This document shows positions 24,428 to 46,985 of a stretch of DNA of 64,000 nt, one piece after another. The position numbers and the translations under genes are program-made. Location of the stretch: the IMG/VR virus record IMGVR_UViG_3300027566_000003; one strand, 5' to 3'. How positions within the stretch are numbered: position 1 is the stretch's first letter; each line of letters opens with the position of its first letter. The notes under the pieces were generated by a model. The model was not told the origin of the DNA and made no database searches. It was given only the letters and a program-made list of their open reading frames with translations. The DNA comes from a virus. Lineage: Duplodnaviria; Caudoviricetes.

Positions 24428-25135
24428 TTAAGGTTTTTGTTTTGAGTCTAGTAAGGGATAGATATAATTATAACCTATATTAGAAATACTTAGCAACTCT
24501 AAAAGTAAACCGAAACAACTTGATATGACAATTATTTTTATATTAAAGAGCAAGAAGATGGTCATTAATACGGCCCATATGGATAAATAATATAATGACC
24601 ATCGTTTAAATTTATGACGTTCTAATTGTTCTGCAATTGGTTTATTTGGCGTGTCTCTTGGAATATAGCGATAAACTATATATAATGTCATAACAACACA
24701 AAAAATAAATAAATACCAAATTCCTAAAAATGGCCAATATTGGAGAGTGTATTTTACTATTAGCGATGTTGTAATGAATTGAATTAAAGATATTACTGTA
24801 CATTTATTATATGTTTTAAAATGATATCCACCTGCCATTGGTCTTAAAGACATAAAAGTTAAGACTACTACAATGGCAGGTGAAAAGACTCCCAAGATTA
24901 ATGACAACAATACTAATAATAAACCTTTAAATACCGCACCAACAGGAAACATGAATGCTAGACTATATACGCTTATAAGTTCTTCAGTGGTTTTTATTTT
25001 TTTAATATTAAACTTATGAGAGAGTTGTGGAAATACCCCTGCGATCCATCCCCAAGCATATTCAATTTGATCTAATGGTACTTTCTTTACCATTTTATGA
25101 GCTAAATTATTTGATATAATTTGAATTAGATTCAT
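24428..25135 (-). CDS. agrB: accessory gene regulator B (AIP-processing membrane peptidase)
   Basis: LRPMAGGYHFKTYNKC catalytic His/Cys motif, YIPRDTPNKPI, multiple TM segments. Confidence 0.92.
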   Translation of the reverse strand: MNLIQIISNNLAHKMVKKVPLDQIEYAWGWIAGVFPQLSHKFNIKKIKTTEELISVYSLAFMFPVGAVFKGLLLVLLSLILGVFSPAIVVVLTFMSLRPMAGGYHFKTYNKCTVISLIQFITTSLIVKYTLQYWPFLGIWYLFIFCVVMTLYIVYRYIPRDTPNKPIAEQLERHKFKRWSLYYLSIWAVLMTIFLLFNIKIIVISSCFGLLLELLSISNIGYNYIYPLLDSKQKP

Positions 25136-25151: not shown

Positions 25152-25943
25152 TTAGGCAAATGCTACTTGCCTCCCTGTATTATAGTTATTTTGATATTGA
25201 AATGTTTTTTGTGTTCTCTCTTTGTTAAAAGTTTCTAGAACTTCAATAGCAAACTTTTCAGGAACATCTAAAGGAATATATCCGTCTGCCTTACCAAGTC
25301 CAACGGCAACTTTCATCATTAATTCTTTCGAACATTCTGCTACTTTTTCTACTACTCCTGATCCTGAAATTAATCTTCTTTTACTGATTGTGTCTTCTAA
25401 TTCACAACAAATGATAGAATCACATCTTAAACCATGCTCCTTTCCTATAAAAACATGAGTCGGTAATGGCGGTTTACTGCCTACACGACTAGTTATTGCT
25501 AAAACCTTTGTGTTACTACTGAATAAATTACCTTTTGGATTTTGCACCACGAGCACAGGTCGATGTCCTATCACCTCTGAATCAATCCCACTGTCAGAAA
25601 AATTACAAAAATATATTCCTCCACGTTCTATTTTTATATTTCTAATTTTTTCTAAATCATTATTTGTATAATTAGAATATCCACAAGCCAAAGTCAAATC
25701 CTTAAACGAAACTCGCCCTTGAGAATTATCAGAAATTACCTTTAGAAATGTTATATCTGGGTATGTAGACATTTTAGTCTTAATTACACCCTCCATATAA
25801 TCCCCGCTAACCTTACAATCTGCTGCAAAATTATCAATTGATCTATTACCTTTTGCAAGTATAACGTAATTTGCAAGTTTCTTAAAATCTTTTTTAGCAT
25901 TTTCCTCAGTATTAGATTTCCTAGTAATTAATTTGTTAAACAT
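25152..25943 (-). CDS. XRE-like HTH domain fused to a PemK/MazF endoribonuclease
   Basis: N-terminal AKGNRSIDNFAADCKVSGDYM helix pattern; C-terminal RGGIYF...HRPVLVVQN...LAITS...LPTHV. Confidence 0.85.
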   Translation of the reverse strand: MFNKLITRKSNTEENAKKDFKKLANYVILAKGNRSIDNFAADCKVSGDYMEGVIKTKMSTYPDITFLKVISDNSQGRVSFKDLTLACGYSNYTNNDLEKIRNIKIERGGIYFCNFSDSGIDSEVIGHRPVLVVQNPKGNLFSSNTKVLAITSRVGSKPPLPTHVFIGKEHGLRCDSIICCELEDTISKRRLISGSGVVEKVAECSKELMMKVAVGLGKADGYIPLDVPEKFAIEVLETFNKERTQKTFQYQNNYNTGRQVAFA

Positions 25944-26004
25944 ATCAATACACATCCTTTTTATTTTTAGTAAGATATTTCAATATTCGGTATTTAATAA
26001 TATA

Positions 26005-26034
26005 ATTATATCTTACAATGGATATGTATGTCAA
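26005..26034 (-). promoter_or_regulatory. sigmaA-type promoter for HTH-mazF and agrB
   Basis: TTGACA-18 nt-TATAAT. Confidence 0.65.
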
Positions 26035-26112: not shown

Positions 26113-26232
26113 TTATTCGAAACATTTAAGGGTTTCTGGTTGATAACTCCACATTGCGGAAGCTAAACATAAGGAACATACTGTAGCAATTGTGATAAGA
26201 CATCCTGCAATAATAGTATATTTGTTTTTCAT
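26113..26232 (-). CDS. agrD: AgrD-type cyclic autoinducer prepeptide MKNKYTIIAGCLITIATVCSLCLASAMWSYQPETLKCFE (39 aa)
   Basis: GGAGGTG RBS, TAATG overlap with the upstream gene, hydrophobic leader, xxxWx-YQPE motif and charged tail; near agrB. Confidence 0.88.
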   Translation of the reverse strand: MKNKYTIIAGCLITIATVCSLCLASAMWSYQPETLKCFE

Positions 26233-27062
26233 TAGAATTCACCTCCTTTTTCATTAATTTTTACATCATCCATTACTATATCCTGCGTAGCAAGATTTTC
26301 GTATGTCTGGTGTATTCTTTTTTCAACTTTTAGGATATAATTAACTATTAATAATATAAATGTTATAGTAATCGTCGGGATAATAAACATCATAACTACT
26401 ATAATTAATTGTTCAAAAAACGATAAATTTATTAAAATTAAATCTATTCCTATTAGTTTAATTAAGTAAATCATTGTAATCATTATACCTATCAATAAAC
26501 TAAACATTGATCTTTTTAAGAAACTATTTTTTAGTATTATATCAAATAACTTAATTTTTACATCTTCACTTTTTTTTACTATTAAGTATGTCAATATAGA
26601 ATATTCTATTACTCTTGCTGGTAATGAACATAAAAAATTCAAAATAAAGTTGGAGTTTATGTATAAGATATTTGTTTTTGTGAGAGATAATATTAACGGG
26701 TAGTAGCATTCTAATATTGAAATAATGAAAATTCCTAATATTGTATAAAACAATGCTTTAAAGTATTTAATCTTCTCTTGAAGTAAATTATTATTTTTTA
26801 TAACAACTAATGTTAATAAATATAATACTAGTATACCAGTTATTTGGGCAATAGATTTTGAAATATTTGTTAATCTTGCAAAACTTATTATAAAAGACAT
26901 TCCAATTGCTGGTAAAGCGACCCATTTTATATTATCTTTCCACATTCTGATATCTAATAAATCATCTCTACTTATACCTATTAATACTATTGCTACAACG
27001 AACAATTCTTCTGGTAAACTTACTAAAAACATGTTTAATAAGGCATTAATTGTACTTTGCAT
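26232..27062 (-). CDS. polytopic membrane protein, AgrC-sensor-like but without a histidine kinase domain
   Basis: Several hydrophobic segments, short cytoplasmic tail, no HisKA/GHKL motifs; translationally coupled to agrD. Confidence 0.55.
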   Translation of the reverse strand: MQSTINALLNMFLVSLPEELFVVAIVLIGISRDDLLDIRMWKDNIKWVALPAIGMSFIISFARLTNISKSIAQITGILVLYLLTLVVIKNNNLLQEKIKYFKALFYTILGIFIISILECYYPLILSLTKTNILYINSNFILNFLCSLPARVIEYSILTYLIVKKSEDVKIKLFDIILKNSFLKRSMFSLLIGIMITMIYLIKLIGIDLILINLSFFEQLIIVVMMFIIPTITITFILLIVNYILKVEKRIHQTYENLATQDIVMDDVKINEKGGEF

Positions 27063-27080: not shown

Positions 27081-27144
27081 TCTTATTATTTATCTTATTA
27101 TTTATCTTAGGATAATTATACCATATGCAAAGTATATAAGTCAA
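27081..27144 (-). promoter_or_regulatory. promoter for the receptor-agrD unit with downstream direct repeats
   Basis: TTGACT-18 nt-TGgTATAAT; TCTTATTATTTA twice plus TCTTAGGATAA at 27081-27115. Confidence 0.65.
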
Positions 27145-27153
27145 TAAATAATT

Positions 27154-27717
27154 TTATATTTTGTTTATTATATGTATTTGGTTGGACGCTTTTATGGAAT
27201 TGTAAGTAATTATAAATACAAACGATCTGAATATTAAATCCCCTGGCGACATACAACACCATCCGAAATCCCACACATCACAAAGCGGTATCATTTTTGT
27301 AAATTCATCTCCCATTATATGATAGTCTCCATACGGTAATGCTTTAACAAACATATCATGTTTTGCATATCCAGTTGCCCATGAGTTAGAAAAAAATACT
27401 GGCATTTTCCCTGAATTAGCTCTTATTGCAATTGTATTAAGTATACTACCTATCCAAACAAGAGGAATAAAACAAAAATATAACTTCATTTTATTATAAG
27501 ATATCGCCAATAATAAGAAACAACTTAAATAAACAGTTTTAAATAAATATGTATATTTAACTAAAGAATAATCACCTTGCCAAATTGTCGATTCAAGATA
27601 AATGTATAGAAGCACCATAAACATAACAGGGTAAATACTCCATTTTTTAAAAATAGGAAGTATTTTATAGTTATTCCATTTGGCAACTAAAAAAGATAAG
27701 AAAACAGTTTCAATCAT
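27154..27717 (-). CDS. DUF5317-like membrane protein
   Basis: GSILNTIAIRANSGKMPV and LCD...SPGDLI motifs. Confidence 0.7.
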   Translation of the reverse strand: MIETVFLSFLVAKWNNYKILPIFKKWSIYPVMFMVLLYIYLESTIWQGDYSLVKYTYLFKTVYLSCFLLLAISYNKMKLYFCFIPLVWIGSILNTIAIRANSGKMPVFFSNSWATGYAKHDMFVKALPYGDYHIMGDEFTKMIPLCDVWDFGWCCMSPGDLIFRSFVFIITYNSIKASNQIHIINKI

Positions 27718-29412: not shown

Positions 29413-29820
29413 TTATGCATAAACTACACCATTTTTATTTCTTAATTCTACCAATCCAAACTGTATACCGATTCCTCTATCAATTCTTAACATAGTTTCC
29501 TCATCGCATTGTCCTATTTTTTCTTCAATCAAATCTCTCGTGACTGGCATGGACTGTTCGCAGAGAGCAATAGAATCCATTTTTAGGCCAGAATTTCTAC
29601 TGATGGGTATATGAGTAGGTAATTTTGATTTTGTGGTCACAGAAGTTAAAGGACATATATGTAGTACATTGGAATATTGATTACAGGCGTTGTTGCTAAT
29701 TATCACTACGGGACGCTTAAATTGTTGGATAGATCCATTACTGTTGGGAAGATTTGCAATATAGATATCGCCCCTCTTAATCTCTTTTTGAGCTTGAACA
29801 TTATTTATTGTTTGTTTCAT
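29413..29820 (-). CDS. PemK/MazF-family endoribonuclease
   Basis: KRGDIYIANL...KRPVVIISN...ICPLTS...KLPTHI; no MazE-like gene adjacent. Confidence 0.9.
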   Translation of the reverse strand: MKQTINNVQAQKEIKRGDIYIANLPNSNGSIQQFKRPVVIISNNACNQYSNVLHICPLTSVTTKSKLPTHIPISRNSGLKMDSIALCEQSMPVTRDLIEEKIGQCDEETMLRIDRGIGIQFGLVELRNKNGVVYA

Positions 29821-29954
29821 AATACTAATCACTCCTTTTTATTTTCTTATGATTAGTATTATGACCAATAATTTGTCCAATATACCTATTATTTTATAAA
29901 AATTTTATTTATATTGTATAACTATTACTTGCAATCAAAATTACATTCTAATTA

Positions 29955-31851: not shown

Positions 31852-32610
31852 TTAGTCTTTCCCTGCAAATTCCTTATAATATTTCTGTCTCATTTCCTCT
31901 GCTAGTACCCCTGCTTTTTCTAAATCGTCAAACTTAAACCTACCAAAACATTTGCTCTTACCTTCAATTTGTAAAACTACAAACCATCTCTCATCTTTCT
32001 TATTCCAAAATACATTTCTATGTCCAGAAGTATTGTTTTTATTTTTACCATTTTGTCTATTTTTAAGATTTAATGAATTACTAGTACATCTCAAATTATC
32101 TTTACAATTCTTTAATGAATCTCCGTTCTTATGATCAACTTTTATATTCTTGTCATTAACTCGCATAATTAATTTAGTTAAGGCTAAATTTCTAGTCATA
32201 TATTTTTTAGTTGCAATGTCACAAATAGTTAAAGTTGTAGTTATATAGTATCTTCCTCTATCTAATCTTGCAAACCATGATAAATCTTTTACTAAATCTA
32301 ATTCTTCAGTATCTATTTCAACATCTATCCTTCCTCCTTTCTTACTATTTACAATCATTATTGTTTTATCACTATTAACTATATATTCATTTCTTGTAGA
32401 TTTAGGTTTATATGTATTGATGTCATTTACTTTCCTATTTAAATATTCTTCATTAACATCAAATTTCTCAGATAAAATCTTTAAACATTTGTCAGGTACT
32501 TTTTCTCTTCTAAACCAATCCCATATAGTACCAGGACTTACTCCAATTTCTTTAGCAAAATTAGTAATATGAATGTCTCTATCTCTAATTAACTCTTCAA
32601 ATCCAATCAA
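31852..32610 (-). CDS. XRE-HTH + HNH + AP2 homing endonuclease
   Basis: FAKEIGVSPGTIWDW; VDHKNGDSLKNCKDNLR; SGHRNVFWNKKDERW. Confidence 0.85.
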   Translation of the reverse strand: MIGFEELIRDRDIHITNFAKEIGVSPGTIWDWFRREKVPDKCLKILSEKFDVNEEYLNRKVNDINTYKPKSTRNEYIVNSDKTIMIVNSKKGGRIDVEIDTEELDLVKDLSWFARLDRGRYYITTTLTICDIATKKYMTRNLALTKLIMRVNDKNIKVDHKNGDSLKNCKDNLRCTSNSLNLKNRQNGKNKNNTSGHRNVFWNKKDERWFVVLQIEGKSKCFGRFKFDDLEKAGVLAEEMRQKYYKEFAGKD

Positions 32611-35600
32611 TTATTATATTCTCCTTTTTCAGTATAAAACATCTCTCGAAGTGTAATAATATCTTTCCTTAATACTTCTTTAGTTTGATGCCTTAACCAT
32701 CCATAAAACTCATTAGCTAGAGGTGTGGCTAAAGAACTAGTATATTTAGTATATCCATTCCTAGAAACGTCCTCTTTAACACTTCTCATATGTTTCCAAA
32801 AACCATAATACTGCAATTTTATTTTAGTCATAAATCCAACATTATCTTCTAAAACAAATCCTTCGATATATTGCCCCTTATATTTATAGTCATCTGCGGT
32901 TACTTCTTCATACCATTGATAGAATTCTCTCCAATTATCTAATATCTTTGCTTTTACTTTCAAAGGTATATTATATTTATTTGAAAACAACTGTATTTCT
33001 TCATATGATTTTTTCTTTGGTTCATTGATATCATTCTCTACAATTTCTAATAATACTAAATGAGGGAAAATATATTTAATCATATGAGGATCATTAGTGG
33101 GATCAATTACTTCAAATACTAAAGTTGATTTTTGTTCTTTGAGATATTCCTTTATCTCTGATTGCTGGTCTAGAGTAAGAGTATCATTAAATATATCTCT
33201 AAAATATCCTGCAAATTCACTATTAGGATTTGATTTTGAGCTAATTAATAATTCATCTCGACTAGAATCATACCCTACTAAACCTAAGAACCCATTGTAT
33301 TTTACCCATGCCGTTACAGGGAATTGGAATACATTTTTAAGATTATCTAGTTTGACATTCTCTCTTTGATTGACGTTAAAGAATTTTTCATAGCTACGAG
33401 CTACCACTTCTCCAGTTTCAATATTAAAAAATAATCCTCTCGCTTTTATAGTTTGTTCATCCCATATATTTTTATAGAATGCATCTTTTGTAAAATTAAA
33501 AGAAGATATGTGACCGAATTTAGATTCTCTGACATATCTATTCGCTCTTAGTTTCTCTATTAATTCCATATTAGAAACTACAATCTCTTCGGATTTAATT
33601 GATTCAATTTTCTCTTCAATAGGCTTAAAGATATTATTTTTAACCTCAATAGTATTAAATCCTTTGTCATCTAATGTGACAATCCTTAAGTACCCTCCAA
33701 ACTCACATTTTCCTTCGAGGCAAAAACATCTTTCATTGATTTGAATTGGAGAATCTGCCACGTTCCTATGACCGTGGATTTGGTAATAATTATTTGGAGT
33801 TGAATTAAGAAATCTACCATTGACCATTTCCATTTCTTTATATTCTCCAACTCCTTTGATCAATTGTTCTGTGGCAAGAAATTCAAATCTTTCTGGTATT
33901 GTACTGATACCACCATGAGTAACAACTACTACTTTATTATTATATGTATAATATGCCAACTGTCTTAATTTTCTATAGAATATTCTTAATTTCTTCTTAT
34001 CTATTTGCAATTTATTCAACTCTCTTTTGGTAACTTGCTCAAATTCTTTACTCTTTGTTGGCATGTCGTTAGAATAGTCCCACAAATGACAATTACCAGT
34101 AATAATAACCCTACCATCAAGTCTAGTAATCAAAGTTCCTTTAGACATTGTGCAACAATAAGTCAAATTATTATATTCTTCTTCCGTAACCGTTACTGGA
34201 TGGTTAACACTTCCATAATAAAATATACTCGCAACATATTGATATTTTCCATTAGAAAAACCACTTCCTTCTTTATAATCATATTTACAAATAATTCCGT
34301 TTTTTACGCACATTTCTTGAACAATATCTATATTTTGACTGTTAATTGTTCTCCACTCAATATTATTGGCTTTTAAATATCCGTCTGATTTTATTAATGT
34401 ATCTAAAAATATAGACACTTGTCTTTGATTAAAGTATTTCCATTCGTTAGGTATTAATCTTTCATTATGTATTTTATTGAATATATCTCTAGCATATTCT
34501 CCATATATTCTTATGTAATAGGGTTGTACTCTATTTAAGTCACTCATTTTTGCTTTTTGAAAAGTATAAGGTATGTCCATTCTATCCAACAATTGCTTAA
34601 CACTTTTTATTTTTCTTTCTTTGCTAAATTTAAATTGGATTCTCTTTTTAATAGAATTTGGATTACCTTTTATATTATCCACAATTGTAGAATCCATTAT
34701 TACCCATGTTAATAATCTAATCCAATCATCTTCTATATTAACTACATTATCATTTGTATACCCCCATAGAGTAAAATCACGTTCTTCTAAATTATGTTTA
34801 TTCAAAAGATCTTTTGCTTTAACTTTTTCTCCTTTATATATTATATCATGATTAGGCGTAACCTTATGTCTGATATTATGACTATTGAAATTGATTATAG
34901 TATTTGATTCTTTTTTAATTGTTTCAATTGGGTTATCAAAACTAATTTCTTTTGATATGAGGTCATATTGTGCCACCACATCTTCTTTTGTAATATTTTC
35001 TATAACTTTCCAGCCATCTTTTGTAAGTATTTCAGTTCCTTTTGCTAAACATTCATGGTTCCCTTGTAAAAATATCACATTTAATTTATCCATAACTGAA
35101 AACAAGTAATTAAGTAATTCTACATTCTCAATTCCTCGATCAACATAATCACCAACAAATACATATAGTTCATCTTCTTTTAATTCTCCACCTAAATATT
35201 CTTGCAAGACGGTATTACATCCATGCAAATCTCCAATATGATGAATCTTTTTATAATTAGAAAAATCTAAAGGTGAATATGTAATTGTGTCCCAAAATTC
35301 TTCTGGTTTAATAGCTTTTACTCCACTAGAAATCTTTTGAGACTCAAATCTAGCATACATATTGTCAATTACAAAATCATGCACTACTTTATAATCAGGT
35401 TTCCTATTTTGATTTCTTTCTTTACAAACTTCAATAGGAACATCTGTCATATCAACACAAATGATTCTGTATCTATATGTTTCTGCCATACTTTTATATC
35501 GATTTAATTCAACTGTTTTAGAATTAGTTGCATCAACAACTACAAATTCTCCACGAATCATTCTTTGTTCTAGAATATCAAATAACAATTCCCAAACTTT

Positions 35601-36728
35601 TTTATCATTCTTTTGACTAATTCCATACCTTCCGTCAGTAGTCATTATGGGAGACTGTAGTAGTAACCTAATATTGTCTGCACTTAAAGCATATTGTTCT
35701 AAATTATTATCTTTAATAAATGTACTCTTGCCACAATTACCAGTAATATTTATATGACCATCTCTTCGTAAAACCAACATACCACTTGGAACAGTAAAAC
35801 AATACTTATGTCCATCTAGTGTTTTATATTCTTTAATTATTTTATCCTTATATTCTTCTCTCCCTTTTGTAGATATTCCTACCAAATTATAAGAACATTT
35901 ACTCACACGATAAGTAATGGGTTTGTCTTCTCTTTCATCAATAGATATACCACTTTTATAACCAGTAGATGAAAAAACATATTGAATAAAATCAGCATCT
36001 TGTTTATTAGTAGTATAATAAGCAATTGAGTTGTCTTGTTTATTAATCGAACCATCCCATTTTATACATTCATCACTAATTATATCTAAACACTTTCTCG
36101 ATAGGTTATACCAATTATGAGGAAAATTTTTTATTCTCAATGGTGATTTGAACATAAAATTAATGTACCCTTCAACATTTGTCTCATTGTATATTTTTTC
36201 TTCAAAATCAATATTGCATTTATTTAATAAAAATCTTATTCTTTCTATTTTTCTTTGTTTTTTAATTCTTATTCTACATCTATTGGTGTCTCTAGGATAA
36301 TTGCCATCTGCACAAATAGCAACTGTCAATCTTAATTCAAATTCGTTAAGTTCTGAATTTTCATTACCATATGTATTAAAAGTAGTTATAAATTTTCCTC
36401 TGAAGCCATGATTGTTTTTTAAATGTTGTTTATAAACATCTGAAAAAACTTTTTTATTTATATTGCCTTTTGAACTTATATATACTAAATTATGATCCAA
36501 AGAAACACATTGACTAACTCCTTGTGTTTGAATTAAATACAAATTGTCTTCTTTATATTTGTGATATTCCAAGGGACTCACCAACTCAGAGCTTCCGTCG
36601 TCATTATATTGTAAAACTTTATCTCCTTCAGTATATTCTGATATTCTTTTCCATTCTACTCCATTAAAATATTCCGTGTCACAGTCTACACAAGCTGGAG
36701 CACCCCTAAATAATGTTAATATCCTCAA
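32607..36728 (-). CDS. polynucleotide kinase-phosphatase-RNA ligase (Pnkp-like RNA repair enzyme) precursor with two inteins
   Basis: GAPA|CGKST P-loop; IGDLHG, GDYVDRG, GNHE metallophosphoesterase; HGHRN; KFFN and KYNGFLG ligase motifs, EGFV, KIK. Confidence 0.9.
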   Translation of the reverse strand: MRILTLFRGAPACVDCDTEYFNGVEWKRISEYTEGDKVLQYNDDGSSELVSPLEYHKYKEDNLYLIQTQGVSQCVSLDHNLVYISSKGNINKKVFSDVYKQHLKNNHGFRGKFITTFNTYGNENSELNEFELRLTVAICADGNYPRDTNRCRIRIKKQRKIERIRFLLNKCNIDFEEKIYNETNVEGYINFMFKSPLRIKNFPHNWYNLSRKCLDIISDECIKWDGSINKQDNSIAYYTTNKQDADFIQYVFSSTGYKSGISIDEREDKPITYRVSKCSYNLVGISTKGREEYKDKIIKEYKTLDGHKYCFTVPSGMLVLRRDGHINITGNCGKSTFIKDNNLEQYALSADNIRLLLQSPIMTTDGRYGISQKNDKKVWELLFDILEQRMIRGEFVVVDATNSKTVELNRYKSMAETYRYRIICVDMTDVPIEVCKERNQNRKPDYKVVHDFVIDNMYARFESQKISSGVKAIKPEEFWDTITYSPLDFSNYKKIHHIGDLHGCNTVLQEYLGGELKEDELYVFVGDYVDRGIENVELLNYLFSVMDKLNVIFLQGNHECLAKGTEILTKDGWKVIENITKEDVVAQYDLISKEISFDNPIETIKKESNTIINFNSHNIRHKVTPNHDIIYKGEKVKAKDLLNKHNLEERDFTLWGYTNDNVVNIEDDWIRLLTWVIMDSTIVDNIKGNPNSIKKRIQFKFSKERKIKSVKQLLDRMDIPYTFQKAKMSDLNRVQPYYIRIYGEYARDIFNKIHNERLIPNEWKYFNQRQVSIFLDTLIKSDGYLKANNIEWRTINSQNIDIVQEMCVKNGIICKYDYKEGSGFSNGKYQYVASIFYYGSVNHPVTVTEEEYNNLTYCCTMSKGTLITRLDGRVIITGNCHLWDYSNDMPTKSKEFEQVTKRELNKLQIDKKKLRIFYRKLRQLAYYTYNNKVVVVTHGGISTIPERFEFLATEQLIKGVGEYKEMEMVNGRFLNSTPNNYYQIHGHRNVADSPIQINERCFCLEGKCEFGGYLRIVTLDDKGFNTIEVKNNIFKPIEEKIESIKSEEIVVSNMELIEKLRANRYVRESKFGHISSFNFTKDAFYKNIWDEQTIKARGLFFNIETGEVVARSYEKFFNVNQRENVKLDNLKNVFQFPVTAWVKYNGFLGLVGYDSSRDELLISSKSNPNSEFAGYFRDIFNDTLTLDQQSEIKEYLKEQKSTLVFEVIDPTNDPHMIKYIFPHLVLLEIVENDINEPKKKSYEEIQLFSNKYNIPLKVKAKILDNWREFYQWYEEVTADDYKYKGQYIEGFVLEDNVGFMTKIKLQYYGFWKHMRSVKEDVSRNGYTKYTSSLATPLANEFYGWLRHQTKEVLRKDIITLREMFYTEKGEYNN
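34092..35051 (-). mobile_element. intein 2 (320 aa) inserted right after GNHE of the phosphatase domain
   Basis: Begins CLAKGTEIL, ends ITGN followed by Cys; LAGLIDADG-like blocks. Confidence 0.88.
35736..36692 (-). mobile_element. intein 1 (319 aa) inserted in the kinase P-loop
   Basis: Begins CVDCDTEYF, ends ITGN followed by CGKST; VAICADG block. Confidence 0.88.
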
Positions 36729-46196: not shown

Positions 46197-46985
46197 TTAT
46201 AAATATTTCTCGATATATTCCCTGTCTTGTGTAAAAATAGGAATATTTTCATCAATTACCCACCTGCTTCGCATAATCCCTTCTTTATCATATTGCTCTT
46301 TTACAATACAAATTCCACGCTTTTGATAAGTTGGCAAATCATTAAAGTTAATTTCTTTCTCTTGAAATAACATCTCTTGAATTTGATTACATGTTTTATT
46401 TTGTAGTTGTTTGTGACTAAAGTTTGCCTGACCAACCATTTGTATAGCATTCCTAGTTGCGTCTTGTTGTCTCCAAATAAAAGCGTTGCATACTTCCTCT
46501 TTTGGAATATTATAAACTCTACTATCAAACATTGCAGTTCCGACTCTTGAATAATATCTTTCCCATTGCCTACCTTCCTCGCCACTATTGACTTCAAGAT
46601 TATTTACTTTTTCTCTAAAACCTTCATTAAAAGCCATAGTTGCCATACTTGCAGAGATAGAAACCATCTTTTGTATGTTTTTATCAAACCATGCTTGAGT
46701 AGTAAGAGCATCGTAATCAGTAATTAGTAAAGTTATTTCATCACTTTGAGTATACGCAATTTTACAACCCATAACATTCTTACAAAGATACTGTGCTGTT
46801 TCCCACATACTATTCATTAATATCATATCAAATGGTCTTTGGAATCCTTTAGTGAATGTATGAAATGCTTTGCCATCAAGTCTGATTAATGTAGGCATTC
46901 TTTTTGTTAGATGTTTTCTCTCAATATTTTCATAACCCTTCATTCTATCTCCAAGATTATCTTTGCTCATTTTTATCTCCTCCAT
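46197..46985 (-). CDS. thg1: tRNA(His) guanylyltransferase Thg1-like protein
   Basis: RLDGKAFHTFT, AYTQSDEITL, FDSRVY, WRQQDATRN. Confidence 0.92.
   Translation of the reverse strand: MEEIKMSKDNLGDRMKGYENIERKHLTKRMPTLIRLDGKAFHTFTKGFQRPFDMILMNSMWETAQYLCKNVMGCKIAYTQSDEITLLITDYDALTTQAWFDKNIQKMVSISASMATMAFNEGFREKVNNLEVNSGEEGRQWERYYSRVGTAMFDSRVYNIPKEEVCNAFIWRQQDATRNAIQMVGQANFSHKQLQNKTCNQIQEMLFQEKEINFNDLPTYQKRGICIVKEQYDKEGIMRSRWVIDENIPIFTQDREYIEKYL

Follow-up and report, generated by a model that had tools for sequence, protein, structure and literature searches.

The agr system is the textbook case of Gram-positive cyclic-peptide quorum sensing and is always drawn as a line from peptide to AgrC kinase to AgrA. 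The phage locus described here raises the question of what a kinase-free protein of the AgrC sensor type might do when it comes with its own peptide gene: such a pair points either to signalling without phosphotransfer or to a missing step in the making or export of the peptide. The protein, called X in the following, is encoded on a stretch of 64,000 nucleotides (IMG/VR virus record IMGVR_UViG_3300027566_000003), which was analysed as a whole and is referred to as the window. X is the sole plausible phage-encoded sensor in a cassette that is sited like arbitrium in SPbeta-like phages.

The phage and its agr cassette

The source of the window is a large Clostridium-type phage. The DNA is AT-rich (about 28% GC), and its 62 ORFs of at least 100 aa are all on the minus strand except one (34005-34376), which lies within the gene for a 1373-aa protein. 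Phage-type genes include those for RNA ligase/polynucleotide kinase, NAD-dependent DNA ligase, methyltransferases and tRNA-His guanylyltransferase (46197-46985, minus strand). The 1373-aa protein (32607-36728, minus strand) is a PhoH-like/phosphatase-kinase/RNA-ligase fusion; the RNA-repair genes of the window are found near two MazF-type RNase genes. The features of the cassette are as follows:

29413..29832: MazF/PemK gene, first in the transcription order of the cassette
27154..27717, minus strand: DUF5317 membrane protein, directly upstream of X (PF17248, E 1.9e-15)
26232..27062, minus strand: X, a kinase-less, AgrC-sensor-like protein of 276 aa with seven transmembrane helices (ORF, AlphaFold2 model, homologues, hhalign to AgrC-type kinases)
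26113..26232, minus strand: AgrD-like prepeptide of 39 aa with the predicted ring S-A-M-W-S just before YQP (ORF and motif comparison)
25152..25955, minus strand: HTH::MazF/PemK fusion of 267 aa, downstream of agrD (PF02452, E 4e-18; phrog_1936, phrog_18248)
24428..25135, minus strand: AgrB peptidase/cyclase homologue of 235 aa (PF04647, E 3.3e-33)

In the order of transcription, the genes are MazF/PemK, a zinc-finger endonuclease, DUF5317, X, agrD, HTH::MazF, AgrB, a DndB-like gene and an MrpR-like recombinase. The arrangement DUF5317-X-AgrD-HTH::MazF-AgrB was kept in 16 of 16 phage loci, with the HTH::MazF gene conserved in all of them and a detectable DUF5317 in 15 (none was detected in locus L094). 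Neither HATPase_c_5 nor a LytTR domain was found in two complete phage relatives (one of 230 kb, the other of 167 kb and bearing terminal repeats), and no LytTR domain scored above the cut-off in five related phage records, including two complete ones. Since the two complete relatives lack both domains, X is the sole gene of the cassette with receptor ancestry.

A second copy of X without a peptide gene of its own occurs in at least five distinct phages. These paralogues (L001:7635-8456, L009:8036-8827, L091:8764-9597, L098:8746-9597 and L099:8824-9687) are 23-44% identical to the first copy and are located after agrB or after HTH::mazF; the phage of the window has a single copy in the region searched.

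The DUF5317 proteins have invariant residues at G90, N94, N101, M105-P106, D147 and S157-x-G159-D160, and H133 is near-invariant (36 of 39 sequences). The pattern resembles a catalytic centre, and one may speculate that DUF5317 is a membrane hydrolase, for instance a peptidase of a GxGD-like kind that would take off the AgrD leader.

The X gene and its signals

The start codon of X is an ATG at 27062, which is preceded by GGGAG. The stop codon TAA (26234-26232) and the agrD start codon ATG (26232-26230) have one base in common (TAATG). The following signals were noted around the gene:

26240..26249, minus strand: Shine-Dalgarno sequence AAAGGAGGTG for agrD, within the last codons of X (read from the sequence)
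27115..27144, minus strand: promoter-like sequence TTGACT-18-TATAAT with TG, between the DUF5317 and X genes (consensus match only, 11 of 12)
26005..26034, minus strand: promoter-like site TTGACA-18-TATAAT, in the gap between agrD and HTH::mazF (12 of 12 matches, consensus only)

These two sites are the best promoter-like matches of the region, one in the gap upstream of X and one in the gap after the 39-aa ORF; this placement suggests that X makes up a two-gene unit with agrD. Promoter-like hits in the region were in total no more numerous than in shuffled sequences, and single sites are to be read as consensus matches only.

The AlphaFold2 model of X (pLDDT 78, pTM 0.70) has seven long helices and a C-terminal helix. 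From the Lys/Arg-rich loops we read the topology as N-out with a cytoplasmic tail. The protein ends about 31 residues past TM7, that is, before the position of the H-box. The original prediction of 276 aa in mostly hydrophobic helices with a short tail, translationally coupled to agrD, thus took on definite form: seven predicted helices, a tail of about 31 residues, the TAATG overlap and a Shine-Dalgarno sequence inside the end of X.

The AgrD-like peptide

Behind X, an ORF of 35-54 aa was found not only in the window but also in 15 further phage loci and 15 bacterial ones. All of these peptides end in (Y/H)QPxxP(K/N), with a Cys or Ser exactly five residues before the motif. Since this layout matches clostridial AgrD (that of C. 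perfringens has C-L-W-F-T before HQPEEP), the 39-aa ORF is, by its motifs, an AgrD. In each of the 16 phage loci the ring-forming residue is Ser and not Cys, and the peptide of the window probably carries a Ser-lactone ring, S-A-M-W-S, the lactone being deduced from the Ser. The four ring residues after the Ser vary between phages (SAMWS, SWLFS, SYFWT, SWAFS and others), a variability which resembles the specificity groups of staphylococcal AIPs.

A family without kinase domains

X is a genuine gene and not a chance ORF, since 26 close homologues of like length (38-92% identity, all 269-279 aa) and 146 representative clusters of relatives were found. The latter came from a full scan of a library of 1.84 billion proteins and are fragments or proteins of 250-326 aa. 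A profile search permitting lengths of up to 571 aa yielded 69 further relatives, none longer than 361 aa. No form fused to a kinase was present among the 146 clusters and the 69 further relatives. The identical protein is also encoded on a 237-kb contig, and the viral contigs of IMG/VR that carry relatives reach 230 kb. Besides large phages, the family occurs in 10 of 399 sampled Clostridia genomes (about 2.5%), with up to four copies in each; named members come from Ruminiclostridium and Anaerobacterium, where they are annotated as "hypothetical proteins". A search of GTDB genome contigs with the alignment of the phage clade gave no relative, and searches of the phage collection, with DNA and with protein, gave no match.

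The family as defined here comprises proteins of 250-360 aa with seven helices, (S)IPEE, LPxR in TM5 and an AgrD gene next to them. Its conserved features are the N-terminal (S)IPEE in TM1, a Glu and a Pro in TM4 and the LPxR of TM5; the phage clade additionally conserves cytoplasmic loop 1 (DLLDIRMW) and the tail motif EKxIQQTYENL. Conservation in this clade peaks in TM1 (0.74), cytoplasmic loop 1 (0.80) and the tail (0.68). X of the window matched the family HMM with an E value of 9e-76, has the family motifs and lies at distance 0 from its AgrD gene. The family is unnamed in Pfam, NCBIfam and PHROGs, and no discussion of it was found in the literature searched.

Since X matched no entry in Pfam, NCBIfam or PHROGs, it has no HisKA or HATPase domain. 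Neither X nor any of 100 family members scanned with Pfam has a HATPase_c_5 match, and an AgrC-kinase HMM found nothing above noise in a six-frame scan of the whole window. No alignment of the family contains an invariant or near-invariant His, and in the bacterial members the column aligned to the phospho-His of the kinases is not conserved. The absence of an H-box and of ATPase motifs, which had been noted for the single protein, therefore holds for the whole family, as judged from domain scans, lengths and the lack of an invariant His.

There is a very slight chance that X is what remains of a phage AgrC, now decaying after loss or frameshift of its kinase half. The missing kinase domain is the one point in its favour, and it is outweighed by the uniformity of the family: the 26 close and 146 distant relatives belong to the same length class, none exceeding 361 aa, and X is 38-92% identical across phages of up to 230 kb. 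The DNA downstream of X encodes AgrD and HTH::MazF, and all frames of the window are free of kinase fragments. A frameshifted kinase, named in the original prediction as a finding that would speak against it, is excluded by the kinase-free relatives, by the lack of a kinase fragment in the window and by the two complete relatives without HATPase_c_5.

Two kinds of protease were also considered and rejected. An intramembrane protease of the CPBP or MroQ type was dismissed since X gave no PF02517 hit, has only the PEE of the motifs EExxxR, FxxxH and HxxxN, and contains no conserved His. An AgrB paralogue or peptidase was dismissed since there was no PF04647 hit and a distinct AgrB gene is present at 24428-25135.

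Relationship to AgrC sensor domains

The reference set for AgrC (A4) consisted of 13 kinases of about 440 aa from X-carrying genomes and other Clostridia. They carry HATPase_c_5 and a SPOB_a DHp domain, the domain by which AgrC mainly dimerises; one of them adjoins an AgrB gene, and the best relative of the set with a solved structure is the kinase module of S. aureus AgrC (6e52, E 1e-29). In profile-profile comparisons with hhalign, the bacterial X proteins (A3) matched the kinases at 96% probability (E 4e-9) over 262 colinear columns (X 23-316, kinase 8-292), the phage clade (A1) at 93.7% (E 2e-7) over TM1-5, and the whole family (A2) at 97.3% (E 2e-11). The transmembrane part alone gave 91% (E 1e-6). 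The controls failed to match, with E values of 0.02-0.18 for reversed and 0.3-0.7 for column-shuffled templates. A plain kinase HMM, run on a small set, matched several divergent members of the family along the full length of the sensor (E 4e-12 to 9e-4), and the conserved Glu in TM1 of X is aligned with a conserved Glu of the kinases. With identities between X and AgrC of only 14-17%, the homology of these membrane proteins rests on profiles; at that level, homology of X to AgrC sensor domains is well supported.

The tail of the bacterial X proteins aligns in register with the DHp helices just past the H-box, and in the AlphaFold2 model of a bacterial relative (pLDDT 82) TM7 continues into a DHp-like helix-turn-helix hairpin, short of which phage X ends. 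The hairpin matched DHp domains (3zrv, Z 7.1; DesK, Z 6.8; EnvZ, Z 6.6), but unrelated hairpins matched equally well, and the tail by itself did not show significant similarity to the cytoplasmic part of the kinases (E 0.025). DHp ancestry of the bacterial tail is thus only suggestive.

Structure searches with the model of X (Foldseek against the PDB, ESM Atlas by shape, VIA-align wide) gave nothing over background, and the same was true of the bacterial model. A profile search against PDB sequences returned nothing for X, and a search of the ESM Atlas by features gave no usable hit. Such structure searches were unable to find an AgrC sensor because no solved structure covers one. Fold and profile comparison had been proposed with the original prediction, in which the likeness to AgrC came from gene context only: the Foldseek part brought nothing from the PDB, whereas the profile part matched AgrC sensors at 94-97% (E 2e-7 to 2e-11), and the likeness now has a footing of its own. 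Descent of X from the seven-helix, AIP-sensing module of AgrC-type (HPK10) kinases, with loss of the catalytic half, is the best explanation.

Bacterial loci

An AgrD gene directly follows X in the 15 bacterial loci mentioned above. AgrB adjoins X in 5 of 21 bacterial loci and was present elsewhere in the genome in all five X-bearing genomes that were checked. X is therefore more tightly tied to the peptide than AgrB is, since AgrD directly follows it in these 15 bacterial and all 16 phage loci and AgrB is adjacent in just those 5 of 21.

Of the 21 bacterial loci, 9 have an XRE-type HTH gene no more than 1.5 kb from X, as detected by HMM and confirmed by Pfam. Searches of equal flanks gave none in the controls (0 of 24 DUF5317 loci and 0 of 29 AgrC-kinase loci, 0 of 53 together); the HMM had been seeded from three of the X-adjacent XRE proteins. 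These proteins (loci L006, L011, L014, L015, L078, L081, L083, L086 and L087) are mutually close (E 1e-24 to 1e-33 against this HMM), and their sequences suggest a dedicated subfamily of regulators. The bacterial XRE HMM gave no match to the N-terminal domain of HTH::MazF from the phage, so that the link between the XRE genes of the bacteria and the HTH::MazF of the phages is one of class only.

A LytTR regulator stands beside X in only one of the 21 bacterial loci, L088. There, a divergent X-like protein of 291 aa and an AgrD gene lie beside a LytTR response regulator (L088:2131-4612); an AgrC-type kinase was not found in the stretch fetched. This protein may be an intermediate form.

X-bearing bacterial genomes also have canonical AgrC-type kinases elsewhere. 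This would suit a decoy, to which we assign a small chance: X might soak up its own or the host's peptide, or pair with a host kinase of the AgrC or VirS type, and so block or retune quorum sensing. Its sensor ancestry without an output domain agrees with such a role, and phages with agr genes but no response regulator are known (phiCDHM1, PMC3901668). Against it, the chromosomal copies of X each have their own peptide gene and often an XRE regulator, and thus look like self-contained modules. A decoy would have no need of the strongly conserved cytoplasmic loop and tail, and phage X lacks the DHp, which is the main dimerisation domain of AgrC.

agr operons of the Clostridium perfringens type

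The 24 best-scoring DUF5317 loci had no agr genes nearby; agr genes were found only beside the subgroup close to the phage protein. In bacteria, these close relatives form operons of DUF5317, a short membrane protein (150-190 aa) and AgrB, with an AgrD-like ORF beside four of eight such loci. The short proteins matched no Pfam or NCBIfam entry. By profile-profile comparison they resemble the first 150 or so residues of AgrC-type kinases (98%, E 3e-13). Their similarity to the phage X clade was marginal (51%, E 1.5e-4), and their HMM gave no hit on X of the window; X and the short protein both directly follow DUF5317.

A search by pattern for the AgrD of C. perfringens led to such an operon in strain v20 of this species (L139:904-2752; further cases are L127-L133), with DUF5317, the short protein (about 155-170 aa), AgrB and AgrD. 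A protein with GGDEF and HD domains is encoded directly after agrD (L139:2801-4504). The operon appears to match the published CPE1563-CPE1562-agrB-agrD, of which the two upstream genes are "hypothetical" (Vidal 2009, PMC2706048); by gene order, CPE1562 would be the short gene. The upstream genes are co-transcribed with agrBD, and an agrB mutant was complemented only by a plasmid with all four genes (PMC2706048). The operon is said to encode no AgrC homologue, sensing being assigned to a separate kinase, VirS (PMC7492741). The two "hypothetical" agr genes of C. perfringens thus gain an identity, namely DUF5317 and an AgrC-sensor-like protein. The phage cassette therefore has all four gene types of the clostridial peptide-production operon, the longer X replacing the short protein.

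Because a pair of DUF5317 and an AgrC-sensor-like protein turned up in an operon for AIP production, a role in peptide making, which the original prediction had not listed, became a serious, if still somewhat unlikely, explanation of the phage protein. X would then be a helper in maturation or export which, together with DUF5317 and AgrB, hands over, flips or presents AgrD or the cyclised intermediate. Removal of the leader would be an example of such a step, and it is likewise conceivable, with the same reserve, that X is the phage counterpart of the second C. perfringens agr gene, with sensing left to a host kinase or to something else. The position of X in the operon is that of the short AgrC-sensor-like gene in the agr-production operons of Clostridium, including C. 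perfringens, and the co-transcription and four-gene complementation reported there (PMC2706048) agree with a joint role. The translational coupling of X and agrD points in the same direction. The invariant N, H, D and SxGD of DUF5317 look like an active site, and a membrane peptidase beside X would fit.

Other properties are less easily reconciled with a helper. A conserved catalytic set is lacking in X, whose most conserved Glu also occurs in AgrC sensors, and most bacterial X-AgrD pairs have no adjacent AgrB or DUF5317. Second copies of X without a peptide gene exist, and the conserved cytoplasmic tail and the bacterial hairpin would be superfluous in a helper. Similarity between X and the short Clostridium proteins is no more than marginal, at the values given above, and any such role of the C. 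perfringens genes is itself putative.

X as a candidate peptide receptor

Our preferred reading, held tentatively and at a little less than an even chance, is that X is a non-phosphorylating peptide receptor. We infer peptide binding, a partner and an output for X along the following lines. The phage AgrB would make a cyclic peptide from the translationally coupled agrD, and X would bind this peptide, the phage's own, at the outer face of the membrane. Binding would shift the conformation of TM1 with its PEE, of loop 1 (DLLDIRMW) and of the juxtamembrane tail (EKxIQQTYENL), and the shifted parts would act on a partner by direct protein contact, without phosphotransfer. This partner could be HTH::MazF, the product of the gene next after agrD, whose sequestering the original prediction had also considered, or DUF5317, the product of the gene next before X. 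In this way, phage density might feed into the adjacent DndB-like/MrpR-like repressor region.

Points in favour of a receptor are the sensor ancestry, the full seven-helix module, the conserved loop and tail and the hairpin of the bacterial proteins, and further the linkage to AgrD, tighter than that of AgrB, the enrichment of XRE genes, the second copies without peptide genes and the lack of a kinase in the phage. Against it counts that the order DUF5317-X...AgrB, with AgrD, mirrors the peptide-production operon of C. perfringens, where sensing is assigned to VirS (PMC7492741); moreover, the tail alone is not significantly DHp-like, and in the phage it ends before the position of the H-box. 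A complex prediction for X with HTH::MazF scored 0.00 and has no bearing either way. Functions other than those discussed here take a modest share of the probability.

Because the X family always stands just upstream of a cyclic-peptide gene, the results suggest that agr signalling has a branch, so far unexplored, which works without phosphorylation. The phage protein and its bacterial relatives could, though this is somewhat unlikely, be receptors of a phosphorylation-independent agr pathway, in which the sensor binds the cyclic peptide (here with a Ser-lactone) and directly controls a partner. With equal caution, the partners might be the XRE regulators in Clostridia and the HTH::MazF RNase in large phages. 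If true, peptide quorum sensing would gain a new class, with X as the first receptor in a cyclic-peptide system of phage communication that is wired to the lysis-lysogeny region.

Comparison with known systems

X resembles AgrC in its polytopic N-terminal sensor module, which is colinear from residue 8 or so and has the same Glu in TM1, in its seven-helix topology (N-out, C-in) and in the location of its gene near agrD and agrB. It differs in that the phospho-accepting His, the HATPase_c_5 domain and an AgrA/LytTR partner are absent; its gene is upstream of agrD and not downstream, and the identity is about 15%. Among known proteins AgrC comes nearest: X has its sensor but not three of the traits that define it, namely the His, the ATPase domain and an AgrA partner.

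With CPE1562 of C. perfringens, X shares the character of a stand-alone, kinase-free, AgrC-sensor-like membrane protein encoded after DUF5317 in an operon with AgrB and AgrD. CPE1562, however, is shorter (150-190 aa, about five helices), lacks the conserved tail and is marginally similar to X; its gene precedes agrB, whereas that of X is located just before agrD.

The C. difficile phage phiCDHM1 has agrB, agrD and an AgrC-type gene, but no agrA, and its AgrC was described as a histidine kinase (Hargreaves 2014, PMC3901668). Both phages thus carry agr genes without agrA; in the window, however, the receptor-like protein is kinase-free, and the cassette adds DUF5317 and HTH::MazF beside a repressor region.

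A phage-encoded peptide module in a similar position invites, as an analogy, comparison with arbitrium. In SPbeta-like phages, the arbitrium genes (AimP/AimR) form a peptide communication module upstream of repressor genes. Arbitrium uses an imported linear peptide and a cytoplasmic TPR/HTH receptor, whereas the phage described here would use a cyclic peptide made by AgrB and a candidate receptor in the membrane.
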